This document shows positions 4,068 through 23,723 of a stretch of DNA of 64,000 bases, one piece after another. How positions within the stretch are numbered: the first letter of the stretch is position 1; every line of letters begins with the position of its first letter. The position numbers and the translations under genes are program-made. The notes under the pieces are model-generated. The model had not been told where the DNA came from and did no database searches. It saw nothing but the letters and a program-made list of their open reading frames with translations. The stretch comes from Myxococcota bacterium. GTDB taxonomy: Bacteria > Myxococcota_A > Polyangia > Nannocystales > Nannocystaceae. Location of the stretch: contig JBCCHT010000024.1 of the NCBI GenBank assembly GCA_039028615.1, forward strand, positions 1 to 64,000, given 5' to 3'.

Positions 4068-4970
4068 CTACACGTGGCGGGCGATTCCCGCCGCCAGGCG
4101 CTCGGCGGCGGCCGGGCAGAGCCGGAACCACAGCTCCGGTTCGACCAGCTCCAGCTCCATCACCGCCAGTTGTCCGTCGTTGTCACGGATCATGTCGACA
4201 CGACCGTAGAGCGGCGCGGGATCGCAGGCGGCCATGGCTTTCTCGGCGAACGCGATCTCTTCGGCCGTCGGCGTATACGGATGCACGGTGCCGCCGTAGT
4301 CGTCTTGCACGCGAAAGTCACCCGCCTTGGCGACCTTGCGCAGGGCGTGGGTGAACTGACCGTCGATCACCACCAGCGTGGTCTCGCCGTCCTCGATGAT
4401 GGCCCGCTGAAAGGGCTGGAGGATCATCGTCTGACGATCGAAGAGCTCTGCGACGGAGGCCTGCACCTGCGCGGCGTTCGAGGCATCGACGCGATGGGTA
4501 TGCCGCGCCGCGCCCGAGACGGCAGGCTTGAGCACGGCGCCCTCGAGCCCGTGCGCCTCCAGCATGGCCGCGAGGTCGACCGGCGTGCCTGGCTCGATGA
4601 ACAGGCTCGGCACCGTATGGACGCCGCGCTGCTCGAGATCCTGCAGGTAGTGCTTGTCCACGTTCCAGCGCACCAGCGGCGCGGGGTTGAACAGCGTGGT
4701 CTGCTCGGCCGCCCGATCCAGCCAGGCGAGGAATTCTTCGAAGCGTTCGAAGTAGTCCCAGGTGGTGCGAAAGACCGCGAGCGGGAAGTCGGACCAGCGC
4801 ACGTCCTCGCGGGACCAGGCGACCCGCCGCGACCCGATGCCCAAGGCCGTCAGCGCATCGATGACCAGCCCGTCTTCCTGCAGGATGTTGTCGGTGTACC
4901 AGTGCCCCGGCGACAGCTCCTCGAAGCGAGGATCCGTCAGCAGGGCGATGGTGGGCGTGGCACCCGTCAC
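4068..4970 (-). CDS. ATP-grasp (RimK/glutathione synthetase-like) ligase
   Basis: FRTTWDY, WNVDKHYL, LKPAVSG, GDFRVQDDYGG, YGRVD, MELELVEPEL; GTG start overlaps the upstream stop (GTGA, 4967-4970). Confidence 0.85.
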   Translation of the reverse strand: MTGATPTIALLTDPRFEELSPGHWYTDNILQEDGLVIDALTALGIGSRRVAWSREDVRWSDFPLAVFRTTWDYFERFEEFLAWLDRAAEQTTLFNPAPLVRWNVDKHYLQDLEQRGVHTVPSLFIEPGTPVDLAAMLEAHGLEGAVLKPAVSGAARHTHRVDASNAAQVQASVAELFDRQTMILQPFQRAIIEDGETTLVVIDGQFTHALRKVAKAGDFRVQDDYGGTVHPYTPTAEEIAFAEKAMAACDPAPLYGRVDMIRDNDGQLAVMELELVEPELWFRLCPAAAERLAAGIARHV

Positions 4971-7147
4971 GGCTTGGCCTCGACGCCGAGCTGATCGAAG
5001 AGGAACGCGAAGCCGTCGACCGTCTGCTCGACGCGAGCATGCAGCGGGGTCCCGCCGCCGTGCCCGGTATTGGCGCTCGTACGAAGCAGGACGGGCCGGT
5101 CGCCGCCCGTGGCCGCTTGTAGGCGCGCGGTCATCTTGCGCGACTGCATCGGGTCGACCCGCGGATCGTTGGCTCCGGTCATCATCAGCACCGCGGGGTA
5201 GGTCTTGCCGTCGACGACGTTGTGGTAGGGCGAGTAGGCGTGCAGGGCTTTGAACTGCGCGGGGTCCTTCACCGTGCCGTACTCGACGATGTTGAAGGCG
5301 CCATTGGACGAAAGCTCCACCCGCAGCATGTCGTAGATGCCCACGTGCGACACCACGGCCCGCATGCGGTCGGGGTGCTGGACCAGCGCTGCGCCCATCA
5401 GCAGCCCCCCGTTGCTCCCGCCCTCGATCGCCAGGTGCTCCGTGTTGGTGTAGCCGCCGTCGATCATGTGCTGGAGCGCCGCGTCGAAGTCGTCGAACAC
5501 GTTCTGCTTCTGGGTCAGTCGCCCCGCCTCGTGCCACGCGTCGCCGAACTCGCTGCCCCCGCGAAGGTTGACCACGGCCAGCACGAAACCGTGACGCAGC
5601 AGCACCGACCACGTCGAGCGCTGGCTGGGGGTGATGTTGACCCCGAAGCCGCCGTAGCCCGTGACCAGGCAGGGGTTGCTGCCGTCGAGCTTCGTGCCCT
5701 CGCTCATGATGATGTTGACCGGGATCTTCGTGCCGTCGAGCGAGGTTGCCATCTCGCGGCGGACGTCCACGCCGGAGAAGTCGGCGGGGGACGAGGCCGA
5801 CAGTGGGCTCTTGGTGGTGGTGCCCGCCTTCGCGTCCCAGCGATTCCAGGTCAGGGGCTCCACGAACGAGGTCGTATCGAAGAGCAGGTCGTCGCCACCG
5901 ATGGGGACCATGGCGTGCACGGCCGACACGGGAGGGCTGTCGGGGGTCGCGGCCGGCGTGCCGTCGAGGTCGAAGCTGCGCAGCTCCGAGGGCCCGCCCG
6001 TCTGGTACATGACGTACAGGCGCGAGTCGGTCGCCACCACCGTGCCGCTGCTCCAGAAGCTGGTGACCAGCGTGTCCGTACCTTCGGCGATGATCTCCTT
6101 GGCCGTGTCCACCTGAGGCTTCTTCGCCGAGGTCACCAGCAGGCGGCCCCGCGGGGCCTTGGCCCGCGACACCACGAAGAGCTTGTCGCGTGGCCCGAAG
6201 GCGAGGTGCACCACGCGGTCCCCGAACTCGCTGAGCTGAGTCCAGGTGCCGTCGGGCTGGCGCAGGTAGTGGCTGAACTCGCCGCCGTCGCCCTTTTGCA
6301 CGGTCGCCAGCACGCGGCCGCTGGCATCGTCGGCATCGAGCTGGATCTCCGCCACGCGCACGAAGTCCTCGCCCAGCTCGTAGCGATCGTCGGCGACCGG
6401 AGTGCCCAGCGCGTGAAAGTACAGCTGCTGGTAGAACGCCATGTCCTCGGGCGGTCGCTGCCCCTCGCGCGGGTACCGGGTATAGAAGACGCCCTTGCCG
6501 TCGGGGGTCCACGCCAGGTCGCCGCCCGCCGTGCCTCCGTTGACGCGCTCGAGGGTCTCGAACACTTCCTCGCCGCTGGCCACGTCGTAAAAGTGCACGT
6601 CGCCGCTCTCGCTGCCGCCCTTGGACAGCGAGACCGCGAGGGTCTTGCCGTCGGGGGAGGGGATGAACCAGTCGACCGAGATCGAGCCTTCGGCGTCCAG
6701 CGCCTCGGGATCGAGCAAGATCCGCTCGCTACCCAGGTCGTCGGGATCGTCGAGCACCACGATGAGGCGCTGGGGCTTGGGCGGCTGACGCTTGCTCGCG
6801 AACAGCTTGCCGCCGGCCGGGTGCAGGCTGCCGTACGACACGATGGGCGCCGCCAGGATCTTCTCGACTTGCGGTCGCAGGACCTCGGCTGCGGGCAGGC
6901 CGTCGAGGTAGTGGCGCGTGTATTCGTTCTGAGCCGCGGCCCAGGTGATCACCTGCTCGGCGCTGCCGTCCTCGAGCCAGCGGTAGGGGTCGGAGACCTC
7001 GACACCGTGGTAGTCGTCGACCACGTCGTCGGCCTGCGTGGCGGGCACGGGCGGTGGCCCGTGCATCGTCGCGGGGTCAGGCAGTGGCTTGCACGCCGTG
7101 GGAACGAAGCCGAGAGCGAGGACGAAAGCGATCGACAGGCGCCGCAT
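4967..7147 (-). CDS. Prolyl oligopeptidase (S9A), lipoprotein
   Basis: Lipobox PTAC; DPYRWLED; nucleophile GGSNGG; NDPRV Asp; GHG His. Confidence 0.95.
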   Translation of the reverse strand: MRRLSIAFVLALGFVPTACKPLPDPATMHGPPPVPATQADDVVDDYHGVEVSDPYRWLEDGSAEQVITWAAAQNEYTRHYLDGLPAAEVLRPQVEKILAAPIVSYGSLHPAGGKLFASKRQPPKPQRLIVVLDDPDDLGSERILLDPEALDAEGSISVDWFIPSPDGKTLAVSLSKGGSESGDVHFYDVASGEEVFETLERVNGGTAGGDLAWTPDGKGVFYTRYPREGQRPPEDMAFYQQLYFHALGTPVADDRYELGEDFVRVAEIQLDADDASGRVLATVQKGDGGEFSHYLRQPDGTWTQLSEFGDRVVHLAFGPRDKLFVVSRAKAPRGRLLVTSAKKPQVDTAKEIIAEGTDTLVTSFWSSGTVVATDSRLYVMYQTGGPSELRSFDLDGTPAATPDSPPVSAVHAMVPIGGDDLLFDTTSFVEPLTWNRWDAKAGTTTKSPLSASSPADFSGVDVRREMATSLDGTKIPVNIIMSEGTKLDGSNPCLVTGYGGFGVNITPSQRSTWSVLLRHGFVLAVVNLRGGSEFGDAWHEAGRLTQKQNVFDDFDAALQHMIDGGYTNTEHLAIEGGSNGGLLMGAALVQHPDRMRAVVSHVGIYDMLRVELSSNGAFNIVEYGTVKDPAQFKALHAYSPYHNVVDGKTYPAVLMMTGANDPRVDPMQSRKMTARLQAATGGDRPVLLRTSANTGHGGGTPLHARVEQTVDGFAFLFDQLGVEAKP

Positions 7148-7217
7148 GCCGTCGACTTATCACGGTTTTTCTCTGCCGCCGTGCCCTTGGTTGCGATCAC
7201 GTTATGCTGCGCGCGAC

Positions 7218-7538
7218 ATGTCCAACTCGGTCCGTGCTTCCCACATTTTGCTCATGTACAAGGGCTCGATGCGCTCGAGCGCCAGCCGCTCCCAAGACGA
7301 GGCGAAGGCGCTGATTCAGAAGCTGCACGACGAGGTCCACGGTGGCGGCGACTTTGCCGCCCTGGCCAAGCAGCACTCCGACTGCCCCTCGTCGGCCAAG
7401 GGCGGAGACCTCGGCAACTTCGGTCGCGGTCAGATGGTCGCCGCCTTCGAGGAGTCCGCGTTCGGCATGGACGTCGGCCAGACCAGCGGCATCGTCGAGA
7501 CGCCCTTCGGCTACCACTTGATCCAGCGCACCGGCTGA
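7218..7538 (+). CDS. Parvulin-type peptidyl-prolyl cis-trans isomerase
   Basis: VRASHILL, SDCPS, GGDLG, ETPFGYHLI; ATG 7218. Confidence 0.95.
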   Translation: MSNSVRASHILLMYKGSMRSSASRSQDEAKALIQKLHDEVHGGGDFAALAKQHSDCPSSAKGGDLGNFGRGQMVAAFEESAFGMDVGQTSGIVETPFGYHLIQRTG

Positions 7539-7544
7539 GCACCG

Positions 7545-7895
7545 TTGATTTACAAGATCTGCAGCGCCGAAGACTGGGCCGCGTGCCAGCGCGAAGGTCG
7601 GCTCCCCTGGGCGGAGGTCGATCGTCGCGATGGCTTCGTGCACCTGTCGGCGGCGCATCAGCTCCAGGGCACCGCGGCCAAGCACTTTCGCGGCCGCGAC
7701 GGCCTCGTCCTGCTCGAGGTCGACCCGCAGCGACTGCCGCCGGACTCCCTGCGCTGGGAGGTCTCCCGCGGTGGCGACCGTTTCCCGCACGTCTACGCGG
7801 ATCTCCCGCACACCGCCGTGATCCGGGCCGAACCCGCGCCCCTGGGCCCCGATGGTGTGCCCCAGCTGCCCTTCGGCCCGAACGATAAAGATTAG
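7545..7895 (+). CDS. DUF952 family protein
   Basis: IYKI, DRRDGFVHLS, LRWEVSRGGDRFPHVY. Confidence 0.9.
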   Translation: MIYKICSAEDWAACQREGRLPWAEVDRRDGFVHLSAAHQLQGTAAKHFRGRDGLVLLEVDPQRLPPDSLRWEVSRGGDRFPHVYADLPHTAVIRAEPAPLGPDGVPQLPFGPNDKD

Positions 7896-7928
7896 ATCGG
7901 TCGTCACACTCGGCCGTTGAGGGAAGCC

Positions 7929-8396
7929 ATGCGACTTCCCTCCAAGCTTCTCGGTCAGGTTCGCGTGGGTGTCGGTGTGGGCGCCGTCGTGCTCGGAGGC
8001 TGCGACCTCGCCGAGCCCGTGGCCACCACCGCCGCGGCTGAAGTCGCCGCCGAGGCCTCCGAGATGCAGCCGCAGGCGCGCCCCAAACACGAGCCCATGC
8101 TCCTGTCGCGCCACGTGGTCGAAGCTGCCGAAGAGGTCCGCACCAAGTCCGCCCCGCAGAAAGCTCCGACTATCCGGGCCGAGGTGAGTGCGCCGCAGTC
8201 GGTGCAGATCGGCGACGGCAAGGGCTTCGTGCCCTACATCGACCCGATTGCCGAAGGCATCATCGCGACCGCCGGGCCCACCCCACGGCCTCGTATTCGC
8301 CGGCATAAAAAGCAGGTCGACGAGCCCTGCGAGACCGGCAAGGTCGAGGTTGGCTCGCCGAGCGGCTGGGACTGCCCGGCCTGTGGCCGCGGCTAG
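7929..8396 (+). CDS. Candidate chryseobasin-like (ChrA-like) MNIO RiPP precursor, lipoprotein signal, C-terminal CPACGRG
   Basis: SD-like GAGGGA before ATG 7929; N-terminus MRLPSKLLG...VVLGGC (Cys25); ends WDCPACGRG-stop, one residue from the ChrA core CPACGMG; ChrH-like MNIO 1.8 kb downstream. Confidence 0.75.
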   Translation: MRLPSKLLGQVRVGVGVGAVVLGGCDLAEPVATTAAAEVAAEASEMQPQARPKHEPMLLSRHVVEAAEEVRTKSAPQKAPTIRAEVSAPQSVQIGDGKGFVPYIDPIAEGIIATAGPTPRPRIRRHKKQVDEPCETGKVEVGSPSGWDCPACGRG

Positions 8397-9994
8397 GGGT
8401 CTCCGCTGGCCATCGGTCGTGAATCCCCACTATCGTTGGCCGCTGTGCTCCCGAATACGTCGGGGTTTCGAAGGGCCTCGATGAGCCCCTTCATCGCTGC
8501 TCGATCGAGTTCATTGTCGACGGTCGTCGATGTATCCGTGGTCAGGGATGGATAGCTCTCCGCCAGCTCCTGCGCGACGTCATAGAACTGCATGCGGAGT
8601 GGGTTGTTGCCGTGAAGCGGGACAGTGGAGGGCGGCTCTCGTCGAGATCCCAAGCGGCTGAGCTTGTTCTTCATCCAATGCAGCCCCTTGCGAACCAACT
8701 TCTCGACACGGATGGACAACCGCTCGATTCGCTCGAATAGGGTGCGGGGCGGTATTCGAGGGACTTTCGGCAGAACCGCTCGTAGGTCGCGGCGCACCTG
8801 AGGCGTGATGAACTCTTGCCCGTCCGAGTTCGCGGGCCAGAAAGAATTCGCCGCTTTGGCCCGTTTCCCGAGCGCCTCCGCCCCGAACAGCACCTCGAGC
8901 GTCTTCGAGATCGACGTGTGGTCGAGCTGCGTGTCGAAGATGGTGCCCGCTCGGATCCACGGAGACATGATGATCGCGGGGACGCGTGGCCCCAGACGAT
9001 CGAATGCAAACTCGTAGCCGTCGTCCGTGGAGTACCGCACCTCGTCGGGCGGGACGGCTCGGGGGGGCGGCTCGTGATCGAAGAAACCACCGTGCTCGTC
9101 GTAGACGAGTAGGAAGAGGGTCTTGGAAAACAGCTCGGTGTTCGCGGTGAGGGCATCGTGAATCTTCGCGATGAGGCGCTCACCTTCGACGAACTCCTCT
9201 GCGGAGTCTGCTTGTCCCGGGTGTTGACTGTTTCCAGAACCGACCAAGCCGTAGTCGGGCTCTACCCACGCGAGGTGCGGGAGTGTGTTGTCTTCGATGT
9301 CGCCGAGGAGGTCCCGGTGGCTACGAAACCGACCCGCGGTACGAAGAGCAGGGTAGGTGGCGGCGAATGGGACGTCCTCGTGGTAGATCTTCCATTCGCG
9401 ACCCGTGGCTTCGACTGCGCTGAAGATCGTGGGGCGGCTCTTGCCGATGTTGCCGCGGACGTAGTTGTCGACTTCGCCGTTGGATGTTCCCGAGAACGCG
9501 TAGTCCCGGTTGGGAAAGGTCTGCCCGGGTACGGAGCAGAACCACCGGGTGCATACCGCATACTCCTTGGCCAACGTCGAGATGACCGGAATCTTCGATT
9601 CGTCCATGCACTGCATGACGCGAAGGGCATGTTTTCGCGCCGCGCCTCTGGAGAACAGCGGTCGCAACTTGCTGCTGTAGTAGTTCCGAACAAAGCCACG
9701 CATCTTCGGGGCTGGAAGTGGTTCGCTGGGGGCTGGCAGCCAGTCCTTGGGGGCGTCTTCGTTCCCGAAGATTTGCTGGATCGCGTCGATGTGGTCGTGG
9801 CCAGGGCCCACGATCTCGTAGCGGGCCTTGGCATCGACACCACGTCCCTTGCGCATCTCAGCAGAGTATTTGTTCGGGTGGGCGCCCGCCCGGAGGCGTG
9901 GATAGTTCGGCGACGGGTGGTCCAGAAAGCCGAGAAGATGATCGAACGACCGGTTCTCCATCATGAGGACGATGACGTGTTCAATCTGCGGCAC
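8393..9994 (-). CDS. Phosphoesterase / non-specific phospholipase C family, no signal peptide
   Basis: IEHVIVLMMENRSFDHLLG, SVPGQTFPNR, YDEHGGFFDH, RLGPRVPAIIMSPW; A/T-richer than flanks. Confidence 0.92.
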   Translation of the reverse strand: MPQIEHVIVLMMENRSFDHLLGFLDHPSPNYPRLRAGAHPNKYSAEMRKGRGVDAKARYEIVGPGHDHIDAIQQIFGNEDAPKDWLPAPSEPLPAPKMRGFVRNYYSSKLRPLFSRGAARKHALRVMQCMDESKIPVISTLAKEYAVCTRWFCSVPGQTFPNRDYAFSGTSNGEVDNYVRGNIGKSRPTIFSAVEATGREWKIYHEDVPFAATYPALRTAGRFRSHRDLLGDIEDNTLPHLAWVEPDYGLVGSGNSQHPGQADSAEEFVEGERLIAKIHDALTANTELFSKTLFLLVYDEHGGFFDHEPPPRAVPPDEVRYSTDDGYEFAFDRLGPRVPAIIMSPWIRAGTIFDTQLDHTSISKTLEVLFGAEALGKRAKAANSFWPANSDGQEFITPQVRRDLRAVLPKVPRIPPRTLFERIERLSIRVEKLVRKGLHWMKNKLSRLGSRREPPSTVPLHGNNPLRMQFYDVAQELAESYPSLTTDTSTTVDNELDRAAMKGLIEALRNPDVFGSTAANDSGDSRPMASGDP

Positions 9995-10192
9995 GGCGTC
10001 TCCAGGCTCTTCCGAAGTCGTGGAGCGAGCTCCGCGGTCTCGAGGAAGTGGTCGTGCCTGGTAGTGACCAGCGGCTACGATCCCGTCACGCCGAAGTCGA
10101 AATTCTCCGAAAGGGCGAAAAATCCGGCCTTTGGCGCCTTCACTCGACGATGGGACTGGTCCCCACCGCAGCGGCTATGCTGCTCGTTGCCC

Positions 10193-11065
10193 ATGGTCCA
10201 CGTCGGCCTGTCGTTGATGATCGAGGAGCCCTTTCGCCGGGCGGTGCTCCCGTTGTTCGAGGAGGGAGTCGTCGACGCGCTCGAGCACAGCTTCGAGGTC
10301 GGCTGGGGACGACAACCACGTCCAGACTGGGCGGAGGCGCTGATCGACCACTACGCCGCCGCCGGGCGCCTATGGGGGCACGGGGTCACGATGTCGCCGT
10401 TCTCGGTCGAGGCGCCCGAGCAGCCGACCTGGCTGTCCCGCGTTCGCGAGGCATGCGAGCGCTGGGCTCATCGCGGGGTCTCGGAGCACTACGGCTTCAT
10501 GGTGGCGGGCGAGCTCGATGGCGGCGCACCGATGCCATTGCCGACGGGCCCGGCTGCGGAGGCCGTCGGCATCCGAGCCCTGCGGCGACTGGCCAAAACC
10601 ACGGGAACCCCGGTGGGCCTGGAGAACCTCGCCTTCGCCCTGGGTCCAGCCGATGTCGAAGCCCAGGGCCCGCTGCTCACCACGGTGCTCGATGCGGTGG
10701 ACGGGTACCTGGTGCTCGATCTGCACAACCTCCACTGTCAGCTCGAGAACTACGGCGGCGACGCGATCGCTCTGCTCGAGTCCTTGCCGCTCGCTCGGGC
10801 TCGCTGCATCCATGTCTCGGGCGGATCGTGGTCCGAGCCGCAAGCGCAGGGTGTTGCGCGTCGCTTTCGCCGCGACACCCACGACGGCGACGTGCCCGAG
10901 CGGGTGTTCGAGCTGCTGGCGCAAGCGCTGCCGCGATGCCCCGCGCTGGAGTTCGTGGTGCTCGAGCGACTCGGCTTCACGATCGATGGCTCGATGGGCG
11001 CCGAGCGGGTTCGCGATGACTTCATGCGCTGCCGGGCGCTGGTGCAGGACCACGAGCATGGATGA
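10193..11065 (+). CDS. DUF692 multinuclear non-heme iron oxidative enzyme (MNIO), ChrH-like
   Basis: Ligand motifs GHGV, SEHYGF, LENLA, LDLHNL, IHVSGG, DTHD, LER; ATG 10193. Confidence 0.9.
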   Translation: MVHVGLSLMIEEPFRRAVLPLFEEGVVDALEHSFEVGWGRQPRPDWAEALIDHYAAAGRLWGHGVTMSPFSVEAPEQPTWLSRVREACERWAHRGVSEHYGFMVAGELDGGAPMPLPTGPAAEAVGIRALRRLAKTTGTPVGLENLAFALGPADVEAQGPLLTTVLDAVDGYLVLDLHNLHCQLENYGGDAIALLESLPLARARCIHVSGGSWSEPQAQGVARRFRRDTHDGDVPERVFELLAQALPRCPALEFVVLERLGFTIDGSMGAERVRDDFMRCRALVQDHEHG

Positions 11066-11258
11066 GGCGGTGCTCGGCCACTACCAGCGGCGGCTGCTCG
11101 CGCTGCTGGCGGCCCAGGCCTCGCCTGACGAGCTGATCGCGCAATTGCGGGCGGACCCCGTTTTGGAGCCCCTGCGCGACTACATCGAGCAGCTCGACCC
11201 GCATGCGCTGGTGGTCGCGGCCGAGCTGGTGGCGCGGTGGGCCCCCGACAAAGAGTGA
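11058..11258 (+). CDS. 66-aa helical protein translationally coupled to the MNIO (partner or split C-terminal domain)
   Basis: ATG overlaps the MNIO stop (ATGGATGA); GC3-rich codons; MDEAVLGHYQRRLL...LDPHALVVAAELVARWAP. Confidence 0.75.
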   Translation: MDEAVLGHYQRRLLALLAAQASPDELIAQLRADPVLEPLRDYIEQLDPHALVVAAELVARWAPDKE

Positions 11259-11291
11259 AACCAAGCGCGCGCTCGTGCGTCCTCTATAACC

Positions 11292-12068
11292 GTGGATTCC
11301 CAGACCGCGCTCGTACCCTCGTCGCCTGCGCCCGAGCGCGCGGCCTCCCACGTCATCGTTCGCCGGATCGCCGCGGTGGGCCTGCTCGGTGTGGCCGGCC
11401 TCTGCGGCTATATCGCGGCCGCGATGGCTCCGCTCAATACGGAGTGGATCCCCGGCTGGGTCGGGTTGGCGCTGGTGTGTGCGGTCGGAGCCCACGCGCA
11501 GTGGGTCGGTCGACCCTGGGCTCGCGGCTACGGCCTCGGCATCACCATCTGGGGCCTGATCGTCAGCGTGCAGGGGTGCTTCGCGTTGGGGCCCCATCCG
11601 TTCTTGCTGACGGGCGTGGCGGGGATGACGGTGTTGACCGGGCTTCAGCTGCTCGGTCGAGGCGAGTCGGAACCCGGCGGTCGTCATTTGCTGTCCATGG
11701 TGCTGGCCAGCGCCGCGGTCCCGTGCGCGACCATCTACGGTTTGGCGCCGCAGCACACGCTGCTCGTCAGCGGTGGGGTTCTGGGCGGCGCGCTGGTCGT
11801 GCTCGCCGGAGCATGGGGCGTGTGCCGGGGTCGAACCTGGGGCCTGTTGCTCGGCTTGGCGGGGTCGGTGGTCATGGGGCTGACGCTGGCTCAGGCACAG
11901 GCGGTGGGATGGTTGCAGCATCCGCACCCGGTGTTGCCGCAGACCAACCCGCTGGCGCTGTTGGCCCTGGGCATCGCGGGCGTCGGCCTGAGTTTCTCGT
12001 CCTCGGCGATCTTCCTGGCCCCCATGGTGCGCTTCGTCCTGCGGGGCGATGACGCGGCATCGAGCTGA
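11292..12068 (+). CDS. Multi-pass membrane protein of unknown function
   Basis: About 7-8 hydrophobic segments; co-oriented just after the MNIO pair. Confidence 0.7.
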   Translation: MDSQTALVPSSPAPERAASHVIVRRIAAVGLLGVAGLCGYIAAAMAPLNTEWIPGWVGLALVCAVGAHAQWVGRPWARGYGLGITIWGLIVSVQGCFALGPHPFLLTGVAGMTVLTGLQLLGRGESEPGGRHLLSMVLASAAVPCATIYGLAPQHTLLVSGGVLGGALVVLAGAWGVCRGRTWGLLLGLAGSVVMGLTLAQAQAVGWLQHPHPVLPQTNPLALLALGIAGVGLSFSSSAIFLAPMVRFVLRGDDAASS

Positions 12069-12087
12069 GGTCGATGCCGCGGGGCCG

Positions 12088-13125
12088 TCAGCACACGCCT
12101 TCGTCGATCTGTCCATCGCAGTCGTTGTCGAGGCCGTCGCACCGCTCGTCGATCGCGGTGGGTGACGCGATGGACGGCACGCACTCGACGTCGAGCAAGT
12201 CGGGCGAGCAGGTGAGCCAGCCCAGCACGGCGCAGGCACCGAGACCGTGGGTGCACGACTCGCCGTCTGGAAAGAAGTCCTCGTCGACCTCGCCGTCGCA
12301 ATCGTTGTCGATGCCATCGCACAGCTCGACCGACGGCACGCTCAGAGGCAACGGCTGACAGACGACGTCTCCCTCCTCTCCGCAGACCCAGGTGCCCAGG
12401 GCACACGCGCCGAGGCCCGCCTCGCAGGCCGCGTCGAGCTGGGTGAAGTCCTCGTCGATCGTGCCGTCGCAGTCGTTGTCGATGCCGTCGCAGCGCTCGG
12501 GCTCGGGCGTCGCCGCTTCGACGTCGCACTCGACATCGCCGTCGTCACTGCAGACCAAGGTCCCCTGGCGCATGCAGGGTCCGATGCCTTCTGTGCAGAG
12601 TTCGCCCAGCGCATACCCTTCGTCGACGTCGCCATCGAGATCGTTGTCGATGGCATCGCAGCGCTCGGGGCTCGGGATGGAGCCCTCCTCGACACAGTCG
12701 CGAGACTGCGTGTCGCAGACCAGGGGAAAGGCGCAGTCGCTGTCGGCTCGGCAGGCGACGGGGGTGCAGGTCCCTCGCTCTTCGTCGCACCACTGACCCT
12801 CTCCACAGGACTCCGGGGCACAAGCCACGGCCTGGCACACGCCTGTTTCGCAGTGCTGGGCGTCGCCGCAGTCGTCGTCGGTGAAGCATCGACCGGGCAG
12901 CAGGCAGCGATCGCCGACGCACGACTCACCCTGACCGCAGTCGGTATCGACTTCGCACGGAGCCCAGGCCGGAATGCACTGGCCTTCGCTGCACCCGTGG
13001 TCGAGCGGGCACTGCTGGTCGGTACGGCAGTCGGATTGCTCCGGGGCGGCCGCGCACGCGCCGACCAGCAGGGCGAAGAGGCCGGAGGCGATGCCTTCGA
13101 TGATTGGCTTCGATTGGTTGGTCAT
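12088..13125 (-). CDS. Cys-rich lipoprotein with 4 putative metal-binding (MopE-like CDGxDNDCDG) repeats
   Basis: Lipobox VGAC; several CxxDxxC modules; ERCDGIDNDCDGTIDE-type repeats; ATG 13125. Confidence 0.85.
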   Translation of the reverse strand: MTNQSKPIIEGIASGLFALLVGACAAAPEQSDCRTDQQCPLDHGCSEGQCIPAWAPCEVDTDCGQGESCVGDRCLLPGRCFTDDDCGDAQHCETGVCQAVACAPESCGEGQWCDEERGTCTPVACRADSDCAFPLVCDTQSRDCVEEGSIPSPERCDAIDNDLDGDVDEGYALGELCTEGIGPCMRQGTLVCSDDGDVECDVEAATPEPERCDGIDNDCDGTIDEDFTQLDAACEAGLGACALGTWVCGEEGDVVCQPLPLSVPSVELCDGIDNDCDGEVDEDFFPDGESCTHGLGACAVLGWLTCSPDLLDVECVPSIASPTAIDERCDGLDNDCDGQIDEGVC

Positions 13126-13127
13126 GA

Positions 13128-15995
13128 TCACTGCTCCACCAAAAAGCCCTGCACACGGACGTGCGAGCCGGAGTTGCCGTCGCTGACGGATACGAGACAC
13201 ACGTAGTCGGCCCCGTCTGGATGGCAGTTGATGTCCCACGACGCATCGTCGTCGCCGTTGGTCTCGTAGGCGCTCACCGAAAGCAGCGGATAGGCCTGGC
13301 CGATGCCGCTCCAGGTAATGAGTTCGGGGGCGTCGTTCCAGACGACCTGGTTGACGGGGAAGACCGCGGTGGCGGAGGGAGGCACGACCCGGGCGCCGTA
13401 GCCCGCGGCCTGGCTGCCGCCGTTGCCCCCGTGACCGCAGGCCGACAACGAGCCGGGCACGCCGATCTCGGAGTTGAAGCTGAAGTCGTCGTCCGCCCCC
13501 GTCAGGTAGCGCTGGAGCCCGATGAACGAGTGCGAGGGGTCTGCGACGGGGAACGCATCGATGCACTGCCCGTTGAGGACCTGCCACGTGCCGAGGAACT
13601 CGGCCGTGGCGTTGGGCCCGGCCCCCATAGCGACGACGCGCCCTTCCACCTGCGAGCCGCCGTTGCCGAAGCCGGTGACCACGCTGCAGGTATAAAACGC
13701 CCCTTCGTCGGAGCAGGCGACGTCGAACTCGAAGTCGTCGTCGGAGTGCGTGTAGTACTGATCGACGAGCACGAGCGGAATCACCGTGTCGGTGGCGGGC
13801 TTGGGCACGACCACGATGTCGGAGTTGTTGCCGTTGAGCTCGAAGTGCTCCTCGTGGATGACGAGGCCGCAGTTCGGCACGCCCTCGTCCACGAGGCCAT
13901 CGCAGTCGTTGTCGACGTCGTCGCAGACTTCCGTCGGGGCGGGCCCGCAGGTGCCACACGCGTTCTGCTGGCCGTACTGCACCCCGGCTTCGTCTTCGTC
14001 GACGAGGCCGTCGCAGTCGTCGTCGACCCCGTTGCAGACTTCGAGAGGAACTGGGCCGCACTCACCGCAAGCGTTGAGCAGGCCTTCGTCGACCACGCCG
14101 TTGCAGTTGTCGTCGACGCCGTTGCAGGTCTCGAGGGTGGGCTGATGGCCATCGCAGGTACCCCAGGCGCCCGCTGAGCAGACCTGCTGGCCCGCGGTGC
14201 AGGCCCCCACGTCGATGCCACACGGGCGGGTGTCACCGGCCGGACAAGGGCATCCCTCGTCGATGCTGACGTCGCAGTCGTCGTCGATGCCGTTGTCACA
14301 CACCTCGACCGAGGGGCCTTCACCGCCCACGCACCCGAGGATCCCGTCGGTGCAGTCGATCTGGCCGCTGTGGCAGGCGCCGATGTTCGAGCCACAGGCC
14401 GCGCCGACCCGGAAGTCGTCGTCGTCCACGACCTCGTTGCAGTCGTCGTCGAACCCGTTGCACAGATCGATGCTGGGCTCGGTGAACCCGGTGCACTCGA
14501 GCGCTCCGCCCGGACCGCAGACCCAGGCCCCGGGCTCGCACACCGGGCGATCGGGCGCGCAGGCCTGGCCGACCATCGGGTCGGCCTCGTCGACCTCGCC
14601 GTCGCAGTCGTTGTCGAGGCCGTCGCAGTACTCGCTGCTGCCTGCCACGCACTGGTCTACGGTGAGCAGCGAAATCGACAGGCCATCGGCCATGTACGTA
14701 TGCGGCTGTTCGAGCGTCTCGCCGCGCTGCACCTCGAACAGGGCGATGGGGTCGTCCGAGAGGCCGACGCAGAAGATGAACCAGCAAAAGCCCTCGTCGG
14801 ACTCGTACAAGAACACACCCACCGACTCGTCTTCGGTCTGGGTATCCCACGACCACTGGCCGCTGTTGGTGTAGCTCAGGCGGTCGACCTGGTCGTTGGC
14901 CGGCCACTCGCAGAAGTTCTCCGGCCCTCGCCGCACGGGCCCACGCAGCGAACCGCTGTGGGCGTGGGGCGGGATCCACTTCTCGAGCTGAGGGTCGTCG
15001 AACGAGATGTAGGGCCCATCCAAGTCCACGAAGGGAACGAAGGAATCGACCAGATCCGCGAGGCTACCCACCAACGGAGACCCGGGCAGGTGCAGGGGAA
15101 AATCTCGCTCGGGGATGACCCACATGCGCAGGTTCTGCTCCGCATTCCACGGCTCCCAGCTGGCGTGCACCTCTGCTTGTTGCAGCGTGAGCAGATTGTT
15201 GCCGGACACGAAGGCCTGCGCGGCACAGTCGACGATGATGGGTCCATCGTCGGTCATCACCGTCTCGAACCCGCTGGTGCGATAGGTGAACGGGTCGGTG
15301 CTGGTGTCCACGCAGGGGCAGAACTCGGGCGAGCTCGGGTCCACGGTCACCGATCGAGCCTCGGCCTCGGCTCCGTCGACGGCCAGCGTGATCGGGTGGG
15401 CGCTGACGATCTTGTTGGCCTCGTATTGACTGAGCCACGCGACGAGCTGCACCAGACGCGCGGCTCGTTCCGTGTCGTAGACGAACTCCGCGAAGGGGCC
15501 ACCGACGTCGGCTCCCCATCCATCGGGGACCTCGTCCCAGTCGATCTCGAGCACGACATCGACCTGGTGGCGGAGGATCTCGCCCCCGAGCTGTAGCGTC
15601 ACATCGGAGGCCGGATAGGTGCGTGGACCCGTGCCGTCCTCGAAGTCCAGCGGCTCGTGACGCAGCAGGAACGGGTAGGTGCGGAGCAGCTGCTCCAGCC
15701 CTTCCACCGTCCGCGGTCGCACGTGGATGAAGTCCCGCAGATAGCGAGCGCCAACCCCCTCGTCCGAGTAGGCGACCCCGGTGGGCAGCGCTTCGCGAGG
15801 CCACGGAAATCGTGGGTCGTGCGGGCGGACCTCGTCCGAGACGGTGGGGTCGAGCCGGACCGCGTCGTGGGTCCGCGTTCGGAGATCACCGCATGCCAAT
15901 AGCAGCAGCGCGGCCACCGACGCCGTCGTCAGCCCGAAGGCGGCGCGGTGTGAAGTCGTGAGAGAAACCGACGGCAACGAAGAACTGGATGTCAT
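13128..15995 (-). CDS. Large lipoprotein with 6 CxGxDxDCDG repeats and a threefold-repeat C-terminal beta domain
   Basis: Lipobox LLAC; six repeats such as EVCNGVDDDCDGLVDE; three C-terminal YxTxxDDD...GNxGS units. Confidence 0.85.
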   Translation of the reverse strand: MTSSSSLPSVSLTTSHRAAFGLTTASVAALLLLACGDLRTRTHDAVRLDPTVSDEVRPHDPRFPWPREALPTGVAYSDEGVGARYLRDFIHVRPRTVEGLEQLLRTYPFLLRHEPLDFEDGTGPRTYPASDVTLQLGGEILRHQVDVVLEIDWDEVPDGWGADVGGPFAEFVYDTERAARLVQLVAWLSQYEANKIVSAHPITLAVDGAEAEARSVTVDPSSPEFCPCVDTSTDPFTYRTSGFETVMTDDGPIIVDCAAQAFVSGNNLLTLQQAEVHASWEPWNAEQNLRMWVIPERDFPLHLPGSPLVGSLADLVDSFVPFVDLDGPYISFDDPQLEKWIPPHAHSGSLRGPVRRGPENFCEWPANDQVDRLSYTNSGQWSWDTQTEDESVGVFLYESDEGFCWFIFCVGLSDDPIALFEVQRGETLEQPHTYMADGLSISLLTVDQCVAGSSEYCDGLDNDCDGEVDEADPMVGQACAPDRPVCEPGAWVCGPGGALECTGFTEPSIDLCNGFDDDCNEVVDDDDFRVGAACGSNIGACHSGQIDCTDGILGCVGGEGPSVEVCDNGIDDDCDVSIDEGCPCPAGDTRPCGIDVGACTAGQQVCSAGAWGTCDGHQPTLETCNGVDDNCNGVVDEGLLNACGECGPVPLEVCNGVDDDCDGLVDEDEAGVQYGQQNACGTCGPAPTEVCDDVDNDCDGLVDEGVPNCGLVIHEEHFELNGNNSDIVVVPKPATDTVIPLVLVDQYYTHSDDDFEFDVACSDEGAFYTCSVVTGFGNGGSQVEGRVVAMGAGPNATAEFLGTWQVLNGQCIDAFPVADPSHSFIGLQRYLTGADDDFSFNSEIGVPGSLSACGHGGNGGSQAAGYGARVVPPSATAVFPVNQVVWNDAPELITWSGIGQAYPLLSVSAYETNGDDDASWDINCHPDGADYVCLVSVSDGNSGSHVRVQGFLVEQ

Positions 15996-17585: not shown

Positions 17586-19370
17586 ATGAAACCCACCCTT
17601 CGAACGACCAGCGTGATGACCGTCGCCCTGTCGCTTGCCGCCTGCCAGGCTGCGGACGAGGCCTCCGAGTTTCGCAGCACCTACACCACCAACTCCACGC
17701 TCTCGGGCGGGGACTCTGGTGGCCCGAGCTGCGAGCCGGATCAAGTCTTCGACGTCGACTCGCGTCGCTCGCTGTTCGAAACCCACCAGGACGCGCTCAC
17801 TCCGTTCACGATGGAGTCCGTGCTGCACGCGGTGTCCGTCAACGCGGGCCTCGTCTCGCAACCCGCGACCACGCACGATCAGTTCGTCGATACCTATAAC
17901 CCTGGGCCCGGCCTCGACCTCGGTGGTCACTGTGACGACGAGGTCGCCTTCGACGGCACCGACGGACTCAACGGATATCCGCACGAGTGTGGCCGCGCCG
18001 AGGGCAACCAGATCGGCAACATGGGGGAGTGGTTCCCCATCGCCGCGGTCAATCGCTTCGACCTCGCGCCGTCCGACGGATCGAACTGCGGCGAGGCGCG
18101 GCTGGTCATGGCGAACAACGCCGCCAACCGCATGTTCGTGATCTTCGAGGCGCAGATCCCCAACCCCGATCCCGAATGCGGCATCTCGGCGTGTGCTCCC
18201 GTGCAGGAGTTCTGGGCGAGCCTGACCGACATCGACGACCCCGCGGCTCGGGCCGACGAGCTGCGCATGGCCTATATGGATGGCCACCCCGATCTCGACG
18301 CGGCGGGCTTCGGTCCCTTCCTGAGCAAGGGCAACCTGACCTTCGGCACTGGCCAGATTCGCACCAACAACTTCGACCAGTTCCCCTGGTCGCTGCGCGA
18401 GTTCAAGGCGATCGCCGTGACCGAGGAGGTCGCCATCGGTGGCGGTGGCATCAAGCCCACCCCGGTGCCCGGACCGGGCCCCGTGCTCGAGCAAGAGGTC
18501 CAGATGGGCTTGGCCGCCGACGGCTCGGCGCCTGCGGCCGCGCCCGCTCCCTTCCCGCAGCCCGTGCCGCTCCCGCAGCCGCTCCCCGTGAGCATCAACG
18601 TCTTGCGCCTGGTCCAGGTCCCCGTGGCGGCCAACCCCTTCGGCGAGCTGTGGAACGACAACCTCTCGCTGCCCGAGTCCGATGCTTGCCAGGACGCCAT
18701 CGTCGATACCGTCCAGCACCTCATGACGGACAACCCCAACCTCATGGGCGTGTCCGTGCCGCACGAGTGCCTCGCGGCGGAGAGCCCCGACGAGTTCGTG
18801 CAGCAGTACCACCTGCAGCTGGCCAATGGCTCGTCGGGCCCGGGCTCGCTGACGCAGCGGATCCAGGACGAGATCTTCGCCCTCGATCCCGGCAGCACGC
18901 TCACCCCCGCCAACATCGCGCGTCGGGCTGCCTTCGCGGGGGGTTGCATCGGGTGCCATCAGCAGACCAACGGCGCCAACCTGGGCAACGGCGTCATCGC
19001 CCCGTCGTCCGCGTTCTTCGTGCACACCCACGAGGGGCAGCTCGAGGATTGCGGCAACGGTGACATCTCGTGCTTCCGCATCTCCGACGGCCTGAAGGAC
19101 TCCTTCCTTCCCCACCGCAAGGACGTGATGGACACCTACCTCAACGGTGGACCCTGCTGCGAGGAAGACGACGGCATCTCGATCGGGCCCATCGGGCCGA
19201 TCGAGCCCATCGATCCGATCGGTCCCGTGCGCCCCGGCATCGGCCTCCCCGTCGAGCCGATCGCCATGGAGGACGTGGACATCGAGGCCTTCATCGAAGC
19301 CGAGCAGGAGGTCGAAGCGACGCGGTCGCCGACCACCATCGGTGGTGGTCTGTCGAACCGATCGCACTGA
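17586..19370 (+). CDS. Lipoprotein with single CxxCH heme c motif
   Basis: SD GAGGAG; lipobox LAAC; GGCIGCHQ; many further Cys; Pro-rich insertions. Confidence 0.75.
   Translation: MKPTLRTTSVMTVALSLAACQAADEASEFRSTYTTNSTLSGGDSGGPSCEPDQVFDVDSRRSLFETHQDALTPFTMESVLHAVSVNAGLVSQPATTHDQFVDTYNPGPGLDLGGHCDDEVAFDGTDGLNGYPHECGRAEGNQIGNMGEWFPIAAVNRFDLAPSDGSNCGEARLVMANNAANRMFVIFEAQIPNPDPECGISACAPVQEFWASLTDIDDPAARADELRMAYMDGHPDLDAAGFGPFLSKGNLTFGTGQIRTNNFDQFPWSLREFKAIAVTEEVAIGGGGIKPTPVPGPGPVLEQEVQMGLAADGSAPAAAPAPFPQPVPLPQPLPVSINVLRLVQVPVAANPFGELWNDNLSLPESDACQDAIVDTVQHLMTDNPNLMGVSVPHECLAAESPDEFVQQYHLQLANGSSGPGSLTQRIQDEIFALDPGSTLTPANIARRAAFAGGCIGCHQQTNGANLGNGVIAPSSAFFVHTHEGQLEDCGNGDISCFRISDGLKDSFLPHRKDVMDTYLNGGPCCEEDDGISIGPIGPIEPIDPIGPVRPGIGLPVEPIAMEDVDIEAFIEAEQEVEATRSPTTIGGGLSNRSH
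19182..19226 (+). repeat. Five imperfect 9-bp tandem units (ATCGRNCCS) encoding IGP-IGP-IEP-IDP-IGP
   Basis: atcgggccc atcgggccg atcgagccc atcgatccg atcggtccc. Confidence 0.85.
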
Positions 19371-19451
19371 TCGGTCTCGCCCGCTGAGCGCCGCTGCGGT
19401 GGCGCGGTCAGGAGCCCGAGCGTTGTTCTCGACGCTCGGGCTCGTTTGTGC

Positions 19452-20216
19452 TCACTCGCGGCGGCCGTCGGCCTCGCGCTTCACGGGCCCGATGAACACG
19501 TCCTCGGGATCCATGTCCGGCCCCCCGCACTCGTCTTCGAGCGCGCCCGGATCTTGATACGCCGTCGAGCGCTCCCCCGCGAAGTACAGGTCGCCACACC
19601 CCCCACGACCGAGCGGATCGCCCGGCACGCACGGCACACACCGATGGTCACTCGCGCGGCACGCAAACCCGATGTCGCAGTACATCGCGCGACAGAACTG
19701 ATCGAGCACGTCCTGCCCCGACACGAGCGGCTCGGCTCCAATCGCGGGCGGAGTCATCGGGTCCTGGTCGTCGCAGCGCCGCGATGCATCGTGGAGGCTC
19801 AACCCTCCCGCACACCCATCGTCGGAGGGCGAGCACCCCTGCACGCCGGGCTCGGTGGAGCAGTGCTCGTCGTAGCGATCGAGCTGCGCGGTGGCTTCGC
19901 GAAACCGAGTCGCGATCGAGCTGTCGAAGGCATAGGCCCGCGGGTCACACGACACGGACGTCCGCGGCGCGCAGATGCGGGGGAAGTCGAGCTCCTGATC
20001 CTCGTACTCCTCGGAGACGGTGCAGTAAAGCTCGTAGCGGGGGTCGTCGGCGAGGGGGCAGTCGTCGTCGAAGCGGCAGCGGGCGACGTCGTCGGAACGC
20101 TCGGGGTCGAGCAGCAGGGTGCACGCGCTGCCCTGGCTCACGGTGCCCAACGCGATGCCGAGCCACAGCCACCGCAGGCGGAGCGGGGCGGACGGCATCG
20201 AGCGAGGGCGGGCCAT
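19452..20216 (-). CDS. Cys-rich hypothetical lipoprotein
   Basis: Lipobox-like GSAC; many Cys; starts 10 nt after the amidase stop. Confidence 0.7.
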   Translation of the reverse strand: MARPRSMPSAPLRLRWLWLGIALGTVSQGSACTLLLDPERSDDVARCRFDDDCPLADDPRYELYCTVSEEYEDQELDFPRICAPRTSVSCDPRAYAFDSSIATRFREATAQLDRYDEHCSTEPGVQGCSPSDDGCAGGLSLHDASRRCDDQDPMTPPAIGAEPLVSGQDVLDQFCRAMYCDIGFACRASDHRCVPCVPGDPLGRGGCGDLYFAGERSTAYQDPGALEDECGGPDMDPEDVFIGPVKREADGRRE

Positions 20217-20226
20217 GGAGATCGAC

Positions 20227-21714
20227 CTACTGGAGGAACGCGGGCCGGACGTCGGTCCACGCCAGCTCCGATTCTAGCTGGCTAGCGACTCGCAAGAGGG
20301 TGGCTTCGTCGCCGAAGGGCGCCACGAGCTGGACGCCGACGGGGAGGCCATCGCTGCTGCAGTGGACGGGCAGCGAGATCCCGGGCTGGCCCGTGATGTT
20401 GAACACCTGGGTGTTGGGGTAGGCGGCGAGCTGCTTGCGTGCGGAGACGAGGGCCTGCTGGAGCAAGGGCCGCCAGGGGAGCCGCCGCAGGAGCTCGAGG
20501 CCGAGCCGCTCGAGGCGGTTGGGCAGCAGCTCGCCGATGCGGGCGGGAGGGCGAGCGAGGGTGGAGGTGAGCAGCAGGTCGTAGCGGCGGTGGAACCGAG
20601 CCATGGCGCCCGCCGTCTCGGCCTGCAGACGCTGCAGCTCCATCAGGCGCCCGGCGGCCATGGTGCGACCGAGCTGACGCATGACCCAGGTGGGTAGCTC
20701 GATGTCGTTGCCGCGGATGCGTCGGCCGAGCTTGCGCTCGGCGTAGGCGAGGTCGCCTTCGACGTTGGCGGCGACGGTGGTGAGGTACGCCTCGATCATC
20801 GCCTCGCGATCGAACTTGGGGGTGGCTGGCTCCACGTCGTGACCGAGCGCGGACAGCTTCTCGGCGGTCTTCTCGACGGCGGTTCGGCAGTCGGGGTGCA
20901 GCTCCCCCAAAAGGAGGGCCTCGGTGGTGAAGGCGATGCGCAGCCGACCGGGGTCGCGGCCGACCTCCTCCACGAAGGGGCGCTCGGGCGGCGGGGCGTG
21001 GTAGGGGGCGTCGGGCTCCGGGCCCGCGGTGACGTCGAGCAGCCCGGCGCTGTCGCGGACGCTGCGCGTGAGCACGTGCTGGCAGACGTAACCCGACCAA
21101 CGCTCACCTTTGTCGGGGCCCATCGGCGTGCGGCCCCGTGTGGGCTTGAGCCCCACCAGGCCGCAGGCGGAGGCGGGAATCCGGATCGATCCCCCGCCGT
21201 CACCCCCGTGCGCGGCGGGGACGAGCCGAGCGGCGACCGCGGCCGCCGAGCCCCCGCTGCTGCCCCCGGGCGTGCGGTTGATGTCGTAGGGGTTGCGGGT
21301 CGGACCGTGCAGCTCGGGCTCGGTGACCCCCATGAGCCCGAGCTCGGGGGTATTGGTCTTTCCGACGACCAGCAGCCCGGCCGCCTGGTAGCGCCGCACC
21401 AGCTCGCTGTCCTGGGCGGGCTGCTCGTGGGCAAAGAAGCGGCTGCCGTTGGTGGTGGGCACCCCGCGGACGTCGGCGCCCAAGTCCTTGAGAAGGAAGG
21501 GAACCCCCTGGAAGGGGCCCTCCGGCGGGCCCGCCTTTGCCGCGCTACGGGCGGGCTCGAACATGCGGCGGATCACCGCGTTGATCCGAGGATTGTGGGT
21601 CTCGATCTGTGCGATCGCCCGCTCCACCAGCTCGGTGGGGGAGACATCGCCCTTGCGGACGAGCTCGGCGAGGCCGGTGGCGTCGTATTCGAGGTACTCG
21701 GCAGCCTCGATCAT
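20227..21714 (-). CDS. Amidase signature family protein
   Basis: [40 protein letters not shown] 21714. Confidence 0.95.
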
Positions 21715-21818
21715 AGCGGCGCCTTTTATCACGTCGGGTCTCGGGCCGGGGTGGCCAGGTCTTCGCGCGTGAGATCGCTGCCTGGACACGCTGCCGGGGG
21801 CGAGCCAAAGTCCGCCCC

Positions 21819-23723
<1,905 letters not shown>

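Follow-up and report, generated by a model that had tools for sequence, protein, structure and literature searches.

Oxidative enzymes that depend on multinuclear non-haem iron (MNIOs) of the ChrH/DybH/MelH subfamily modify CPxCGxG motifs in the precursors of peptides made on the ribosome and modified after translation (RiPPs), and our account of them follows the main texts and passages of the papers cited. The MNIO acts with a helical subunit through a thioaldehyde, a hydantoin is formed, and the first core cysteine closes the ring (PMC12636315, PMC13733907); the hydantoin is built on the backbone nitrogen of residue X, the penultimate residue of the motif (PMC12636315). S-methylation needs nothing but S-adenosylmethionine (SAM), an enzyme probably not being involved (PMC13733907), and ChrI, which carries a DUF1772 domain (PMC10214503), is dispensable (PMC12636315). 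The precursor DybA passes through Sec export, Lgt and LspA to become a lipid-anchored protein (PMC13056109), and MelH is inactive without MelHc, a required small subunit that is split from it (PMC12636315, PMC13056109). The subfamily has already been described in Myxococcota, Cyanobacteria and Planctomycetota with the CPxCGxG consensus (PMC12636315, PMC13056109); variants of the motif, myxococcotal members and the split enzyme are likewise in print, and one myxobacterial pair, ArlAH of Archangium, has been assayed (PMC13056109). The comparison literature also includes PMC12452194 and bioRxiv 2025.11.18.689057. Here we describe a cassette of this subfamily within positions 7929–12068 of a 64,000-nt stretch (the window) from a member of the Nannocystaceae (assembly GCA_039028615.1, contig JBCCHT010000024.1, positions 1 to 64,000, forward strand).

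We read this locus with good confidence as a RiPP cassette of the ChrH/DybH/MelH subfamily that has a split enzyme and acts on a lipoprotein, i.e. of the type termed DAG-RiPP. Gene identities, homology, synteny and iron ligands are taken from the locus itself, the chemistry and lipidation are carried over from homologues, and acceptance of arginine in the core, the promoter and the function are what we infer. The precursor is the sole CPxCGxG-stop open reading frame (ORF), and the sole CxxCGxG-stop ORF, among 190,431 six-frame stop-to-stop ORFs of at least 25 aa in the 12.27-Mb genome, and it is separated by 1796 bp from the MNIO, the only ChrH-like enzyme among the eight PF05114 matches of the genome. 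Because the one such ORF lies near the one such enzyme, a chance association is not credible, and the genome has no second CxxCGxG-stop ORF that could serve as a substrate in trans. The features are as follows.

7929–8396, plus strand: precursor ORF of 155 aa, with signal residues 1–25, a disordered tether and the core; weak match to NF050125.
8373–8393, plus strand: core CPACGRG, the predicted modification site; CxxCGRG-stop is kept in 10/10 relatives.
8393–9994, minus strand: phosphoesterase/phospholipase-C-family gene of 533 aa (PF04185, 205.5 bits), inserted and outside the pathway.
10176–10181, plus strand: TATGCT, candidate −10 element of a putative internal promoter, 11 nt 5′ of the MNIO ATG.
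10193–11065, plus strand: ChrH/DybH/MelH-subfamily MNIO of 290 aa, TIM barrel only; matches PF05114 and the ChrH model, ligands intact.
11058–11258, plus strand: detached C-terminal helical domain of 66 aa, a MelHc homologue (38% to MelHc of locus L084), fused to the enzyme in relatives.
11292–12068, plus strand: hydrophobic membrane protein of 258 aa, an unrelated neighbour with no family match and no conservation.

The genes named in an original prediction, made from the letters of the window, are all present: the 155-aa ORF ending in DCPACGRG-stop with its core at 8373–8393 corresponds to ORF 7929–8396, the quoted MNIO motifs all occur in 10193–11065, the coupled 66-aa ORF overlaps the MNIO stop codon by 8 nt, and a hydrophobic 258-aa membrane ORF follows it at 11292–12068. 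The antisense phosphoesterase in the gap and the lipobox at Cys25 had been overlooked. A Logan contig of 7,085 nt covers 7000–12303 with zero differences, which speaks against faulty joining as the source of this layout, although the run may be the source sample and the contig is then not an independent one.

The enzyme matches PF05114 with 85.1 bits against a gathering cut-off of 25, in the search of 10193–11065 that the original prediction had proposed. Its best NCBIfam model is that of ChrH (NF050165, 233.6 bits over profile positions 3–286 of 363), the BufB, HvfB and ApyH models giving 66.7, 59.8 and 27.5 bits, each under its cut-off (310, 360 and 400, respectively), with no match to the MbnB model at E 0.1. 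It is 45% identical to MelH of Melainabacteria SJ512 (locus L084) and 74% identical to its closest named relative, that of Paraliomyxa miuraensis. An alignment-based scan returned 336 related stretches, the best 80 of which were kept as wider loci and given L numbers; a single-protein locus scan for relatives had found nothing. In a maximum-likelihood tree, which like the second tree discussed below is a quick search with SH-aLRT support only, the window MNIO falls in an 86-row subfamily clade (support 99), apart from the seven other MNIOs of the genome, and within this in a 23-row, mostly Nannocystaceae clade (support 99). The predicted iron ligands (H63, H99, E144, D176, H207, D228, H230 and E258) are invariant in 86/86 rows, and their spacing matches that of the DybH ligands named in PMC13733907, a mapping inferred through the Bacteroidota locus L106. 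Family searches of Bacteroidota enzymes gave none above the ChrH cut-off, 0/185 and, at E 1e-140, 0/401. From the hidden Markov model ranking, the identity to MelH and the 86-row clade we assign the window enzyme to the ChrH/DybH/MelH subfamily, and the earlier placement with ChrH rather than with MbnB, TglH or BufB is upheld.

The 66-aa ORF is assigned by homology as the detached C-terminal helical domain of this enzyme, not as a partner of the ChrI type. It aligns with MelHc of L084 at 38% identity over 61 aa (pairwise E 3e-14) and shares 45% identity with the tail of the enzyme from P. miuraensis, where, as in other relatives, the helical domain is joined to the MNIO barrel; to the fused tails of Bacteroidota enzymes it is only weakly similar (7.0 bits). 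The 8-nt overlap with the enzyme stop codon is common to this ORF and MelHc.

The pairing of precursor and enzyme recurs among relatives. Ten were found among 60 genomes, five congeners and five of other genera, and in 10/10 a precursor homologue ending in CxxCGRG-stop lies 9–192 bp upstream of the enzyme; a terminal CxxCGxG is present in 69/80 of the wider loci. With its genome-unique motif and its conserved pairing, the CPACGRG ORF is, as had been proposed, likely to be the substrate of the enzyme. Of 86 cores, counted after one chance CxxCGxG match at L092 was dropped by hand, 45 have Met as residue X, 32 have Arg, 5 have Lys and 4 have another residue. Met and Arg cores stand beside one enzyme at six loci and alternate within the Nannocystaceae clade, which rules out Arg as the mark of a specialised enzyme. 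Tandem arrays of 2–4 precursors with differing X (Met, Arg, Lys, Leu) and one enzyme are seen at L055, L056, L076, L079, L085, L088, L106 and L108. Since the hydantoin uses the backbone nitrogen of X, Arg is probably accepted at this position.

The precursor N-terminus is of lipoprotein type (residues 1–25, with LGGC at Cys25). A lipobox as defined by a PROSITE-type pattern is present at Cys25, and likewise in 17 of the 20 Nannocystaceae-clade precursors with a recoverable start, the other three having a Cys at about position 30. The genome has five matches to Lgt and four to LspA, and the precursor is a probable lipoprotein of the DybA type. A tether of ~123 aa, rich in Ala, Pro and Glu and with an extra Cys134, leads to the core C149-P-A-C152-G-R-G; among homologues the N-terminus and core are conserved and the middle is variable and of low complexity. 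A single-sequence fold gave almost no structure (predicted local distance difference test score, pLDDT, 52), which is compatible with disorder but is not proof of it. An extra Cys occurs 15–18 residues before the core in 5/6 genus members and is absent from one congener and from 5/5 other-genera precursors, and a Trp lies 2–5 residues before the core in 11/11 precursors. The stretch at window 8229–8396, which takes in Cys134 and the Trp, also has a conserved F[IV]P[YF] motif (9/11) in the otherwise variable tether. The precursor start (window 7929–7952 here) has the form M-[KRHQMT]-[LIV]-[PSTA] in 59/86 across several phyla, and 50 of the 59 have Leu as residue 8, a constancy unusual in a signal peptide, even though DybH needs no more than the core.

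If the chemistry of the homologues applies, the cytoplasmic MNIO and the 66-aa helical subunit would form a heterodimer recognising the C-terminal CPACGRG, Cys152 would be oxidised to a thioaldehyde as for DybH, the amide nitrogens of Gly153 and Arg154 would go into a hydantoin, and Cys149 would close the macrocycle as a thioether, with a net change of −4.03 Da and a free thiol. S-methylation of the product is unlikely, and any S-methyl group on it would be adventitious. The modified precursor would then be exported by Sec, lipidated by Lgt at Cys25 and cleaved by LspA, so that the cationic, macrocyclic head would be held to the envelope by a disordered tether of ~123 aa. Most likely the product serves as an envelope-displayed binding module, at the surface or in the periplasm; binding at the surface is favoured by the conservation of a cationic head at the end of so long a tether.

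Cys134 or the Arg might instead redirect the chemistry, so that the same enzyme class gives another end product, such as a larger thioether ring, or a disulfide or metal site with the product thiol. That the intermediate can be caught by a thiol besides the first core Cys is seen in the glutathione adduct of DybA-C44A (PMC13733907), and both the Cys134-type residue and the Trp before the core are widely kept (5/6 genus members and 11/11 precursors, respectively). However, the extra Cys is missing in one congener and in all five other-genera precursors, and the adjacent Cys149 is present, the equivalent of which closes the ring in all two-Cys substrates characterised in the texts covered, and we consider such a diversion improbable.

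Macrocyclisation by the split enzyme remains our preferred reading, and under it the phosphoesterase gene has to be accounted for. Its GC content is 0.60–0.64, with a third-position value (GC3) of 0.76 against 0.82–0.92 in the neighbouring genes; it is found at 0/10 related loci, and its best matches in congeners, present in 3/5, are at 33–35% identity. From this low GC, the absence at related loci and the distant congener matches, it is a later insertion between precursor and enzyme and not a pathway gene; no repeat of at least 8 nt was found at the insertion edges tested. The insertion was probably tolerated, given that the enzyme would have its own internal promoter. The hexamer TATGCT lies 5–14 nt before a coding-like ATG in 14.5% of its 386 genomic copies, as against 1.4–2.5% for seven control hexamers, and hexamers akin to it precede the enzyme in 5/5 congeners, the pattern having been chosen after the fact; CATGCT and CATCCT are barely enriched (3.1–3.5%). 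A sigma-70 scan returned 0 promoters, and terminators numbered 2 versus 2.4 expected. Alternatively, in this strain the insertion may have uncoupled the cassette or shut it down, leaving the genes as intact remnants: a foreign-looking 1.8-kb gene now parts genes that are 9–192 bp apart in 10/10 relatives, and the phosphoesterase frame runs head-on into the precursor stop codon. Against this, the three frames are intact with all ligands present, the −10-like hexamer precedes the enzyme here as similar ones do in the five congeners, and the uncorrected ratio of non-synonymous to synonymous differences (pN/pS) shows no clear rise (0.37–0.44 for the window enzyme versus congeners, 0.31–0.43 among congeners), suggesting no clear relaxation; we regard silencing as very improbable. 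Mining based on adjacency can miss such pairs, since an inserted gene can come to lie between precursor and enzyme.

Least probable is the pathway of the original prediction, chryseobasin-like with the membrane protein acting as ChrI and an S-methylated product, for although the enzyme is ChrH-like, the membrane gene follows it as chrI does and myxobacterial ArlAH gave some methylated product in Escherichia coli (PMC13056109), the membrane protein has no Pfam or NCBIfam match where ChrI has DUF1772, its gene is at 0/10 related loci and not found in 5/5 congeners, and ChrI is dispensable and methylation proceeds with SAM alone. The membrane protein is thus ruled out as ChrI and drops out of the system, and the thiomethyl group is probably not an enzymatic one (PMC13733907). 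Matches to the membrane protein in the atlas searched are unnamed, at 0.87 or lower.

Several points weigh against a split lipoprotein cassette as set out above. The MNIO at 233.6 bits is under the NF050165 cut-off of 600, as is the characterised MelH at 325, and ChrH, DybH, TglH and MbnB sequences are absent from the tree. The insertion parts the precursor from the enzyme in this genome. The lipobox call comes from a PROSITE-type pattern, not from SignalP, and the hydrophobic stretch is short (12 residues) and Gly-rich. The match of the precursor to NF050125, the ChrA-related RiPP peptide model, is 21.4 bits over its N-terminal 38 residues, with a cut-off of 40; this model has 56 positions, and at 31.9 bits a short precursor from Bacteroidota is under the cut-off too. 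The Arg core is a common variant (32/86), yet among the tested substrates described in the main texts and passages covered none has an Arg core, HymA with CPGCGLG being the only change at X found there.

Upstream of the precursor (window 4967–7895) are genes for a lipoprotein-like prolyl oligopeptidase, a parvulin-type peptidyl-prolyl isomerase and a DUF952 protein, whose synteny extends to only part of the genus. The prolyl oligopeptidase was considered as a releasing protease and rejected as a syntenic neighbour, being adjacent in 2/5 congener loci (two of the contigs are short) and in 0/5 other-genera loci. On the 3′ side of the membrane gene (window 12088–15995, minus strand) are two large Cys/Asp-rich repeat proteins with repeats of CDGxDNDCDG type. 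Elsewhere in the same genome (L001:5596–10975, that is G000:C17, about 17600–22970, minus strand) there is a separate RiPP-like cluster, in which a short Cys-containing precursor-like ORF lies with a radical SAM gene, a divergent 498-aa MNIO, a YcaO-like frame recognised by eye and TfuA.

A sister branch of the subfamily carries precursors with one core Cys. At 4/80 loci either the enzyme or the helical subunit is joined to a zinc- and NAD(P)-dependent alcohol-dehydrogenase domain, and all four have lipoprotein-type precursors ending in xxxCGRG; among the two-Cys loci that extend 1.3 kb or more downstream, 0/62 have the domain. When 301 genomes from the order Polyangiales were searched, 22 loci were obtained, 13 of them with the dehydrogenase, and nine of these 13 have single-Cys CGRG precursors; the five two-Cys loci of this search are without it, one of them having only 731 bp downstream. 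The remaining four fusions (L143, L144, L145 and L148) are without a CGxG precursor within 1.5 kb upstream and have a Trp/Gly-repeat (propeller-like) gene directly upstream. In total the fusion accompanies single-Cys CGRG precursors, 1–4 per locus, in ten distinct genomes (L064, L065, L067, L092, L136 and L138–L142; e.g. L065:3540–6154), and both types occur together in two genomes (L064 with L110, and L065 with L153). In the second tree a branch with support of 99 unites 14 dehydrogenase loci, the truncated L086 and the long-branch two-Cys L105 against 24 other rows that include the window, related genomes not being independent. The zinc and nucleotide-binding motifs look intact in 14/14 aligned dehydrogenase domains. 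Against a strict link stand the single-Cys cores without the dehydrogenase at L096, L107, L023 and L034 (ending CG[M/G]G). L096 and L107 have ~330-aa paralogues with another conserved Cys ~15 residues earlier, perhaps giving a larger ring.

The first step of DybH chemistry is the thioaldehyde, and DybA without its ring-closing Cys (C44A) yields an electrophilic −4 Da intermediate that is trapped by glutathione (PMC13733907). It is nearly as likely as not, and we put it forward tentatively, that in the sister branch the fused reductase quenches one of these intermediates with hydride, so that Arg-core lipoproteins would carry an undescribed MNIO modification that lacks the macrocycle. If so, the two-Cys, reductase-free cassette of the window would be a natural control for that branch. 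The branch matters more than the window itself, in that it hints at MNIO chemistry of a new sort and at a naturally occurring counterpart of a shunt intermediate already in print. The dehydrogenase-fusion branch was not found in the literature searched, and no paper devoted to it or to the Arg core in this subfamily was found there.

By its sequence the cassette is an ordinary member of a family published in 2025–26 and already known from myxobacteria, split by an unrelated inserted gene. It has a PF05114 enzyme with its ligands and grouping, the helical domain and a linked CPxCGxG precursor, as well as the lipobox Cys pattern and host Lgt and LspA of a DAG-RiPP. Placing it in this subfamily outside Bacteroidota was right; the novelty claimed for that was not, as the subfamily is described in Myxococcota, and the chr operon is not the best model, Dyb and Mel being closer. 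Nor is it chryseobasin proper: the enzyme is under the NF050165 cut-off and is not the fused form of 363 positions, and no chrI (DUF1772), chrE or chrP is among the eight locus proteins scanned. What it adds is a Nannocystaceae-wide, split-enzyme, long-tether lipoprotein form and a natural Arg-core substrate.

Among the described systems, ArlA/ArlH of Archangium (PMC13056109) is also a myxobacterial subfamily member, but its motif is an embedded CPACGMMM rather than a terminal CPACGRG. ChrA/ChrH/ChrI of Chryseobacterium (PMC10214503) shares the enzyme subfamily and the core type, whereas the locus described here has a split enzyme (233.6 bits versus the cut-off of 600) and a lipoprotein signal in place of a signal peptidase I (SPI) signal. 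The closest models are Dyb for the lipoprotein and Mel for the split enzyme. DybA/DybH of Dyadobacter crusticola, the founding DAG-RiPP (PMC13056109), has the lipobox Cys and a C-terminal CPxCGxG, no ChrI, and the −4 Da product predicted here; it differs in that the DybH helical domain is fused and DybA-type precursors are short, whereas here there are a ~123-aa tether, Arg for Met and an inserted gene. MelA1/MelH/MelHc of Candidatus Melainabacteria SJ512 (PMC13056109, PMC12636315) matches in its split barrel (45%) and helical subunit (38%), the 8-nt overlap, and a protein-size substrate with a C-terminal motif, but MelA1 is a folded 34-kDa tetratricopeptide repeat protein that carries an SPI signal and has Met in its core, in contrast to the probable lipoprotein of 155 aa at this locus, which is disordered and has Arg in the core.

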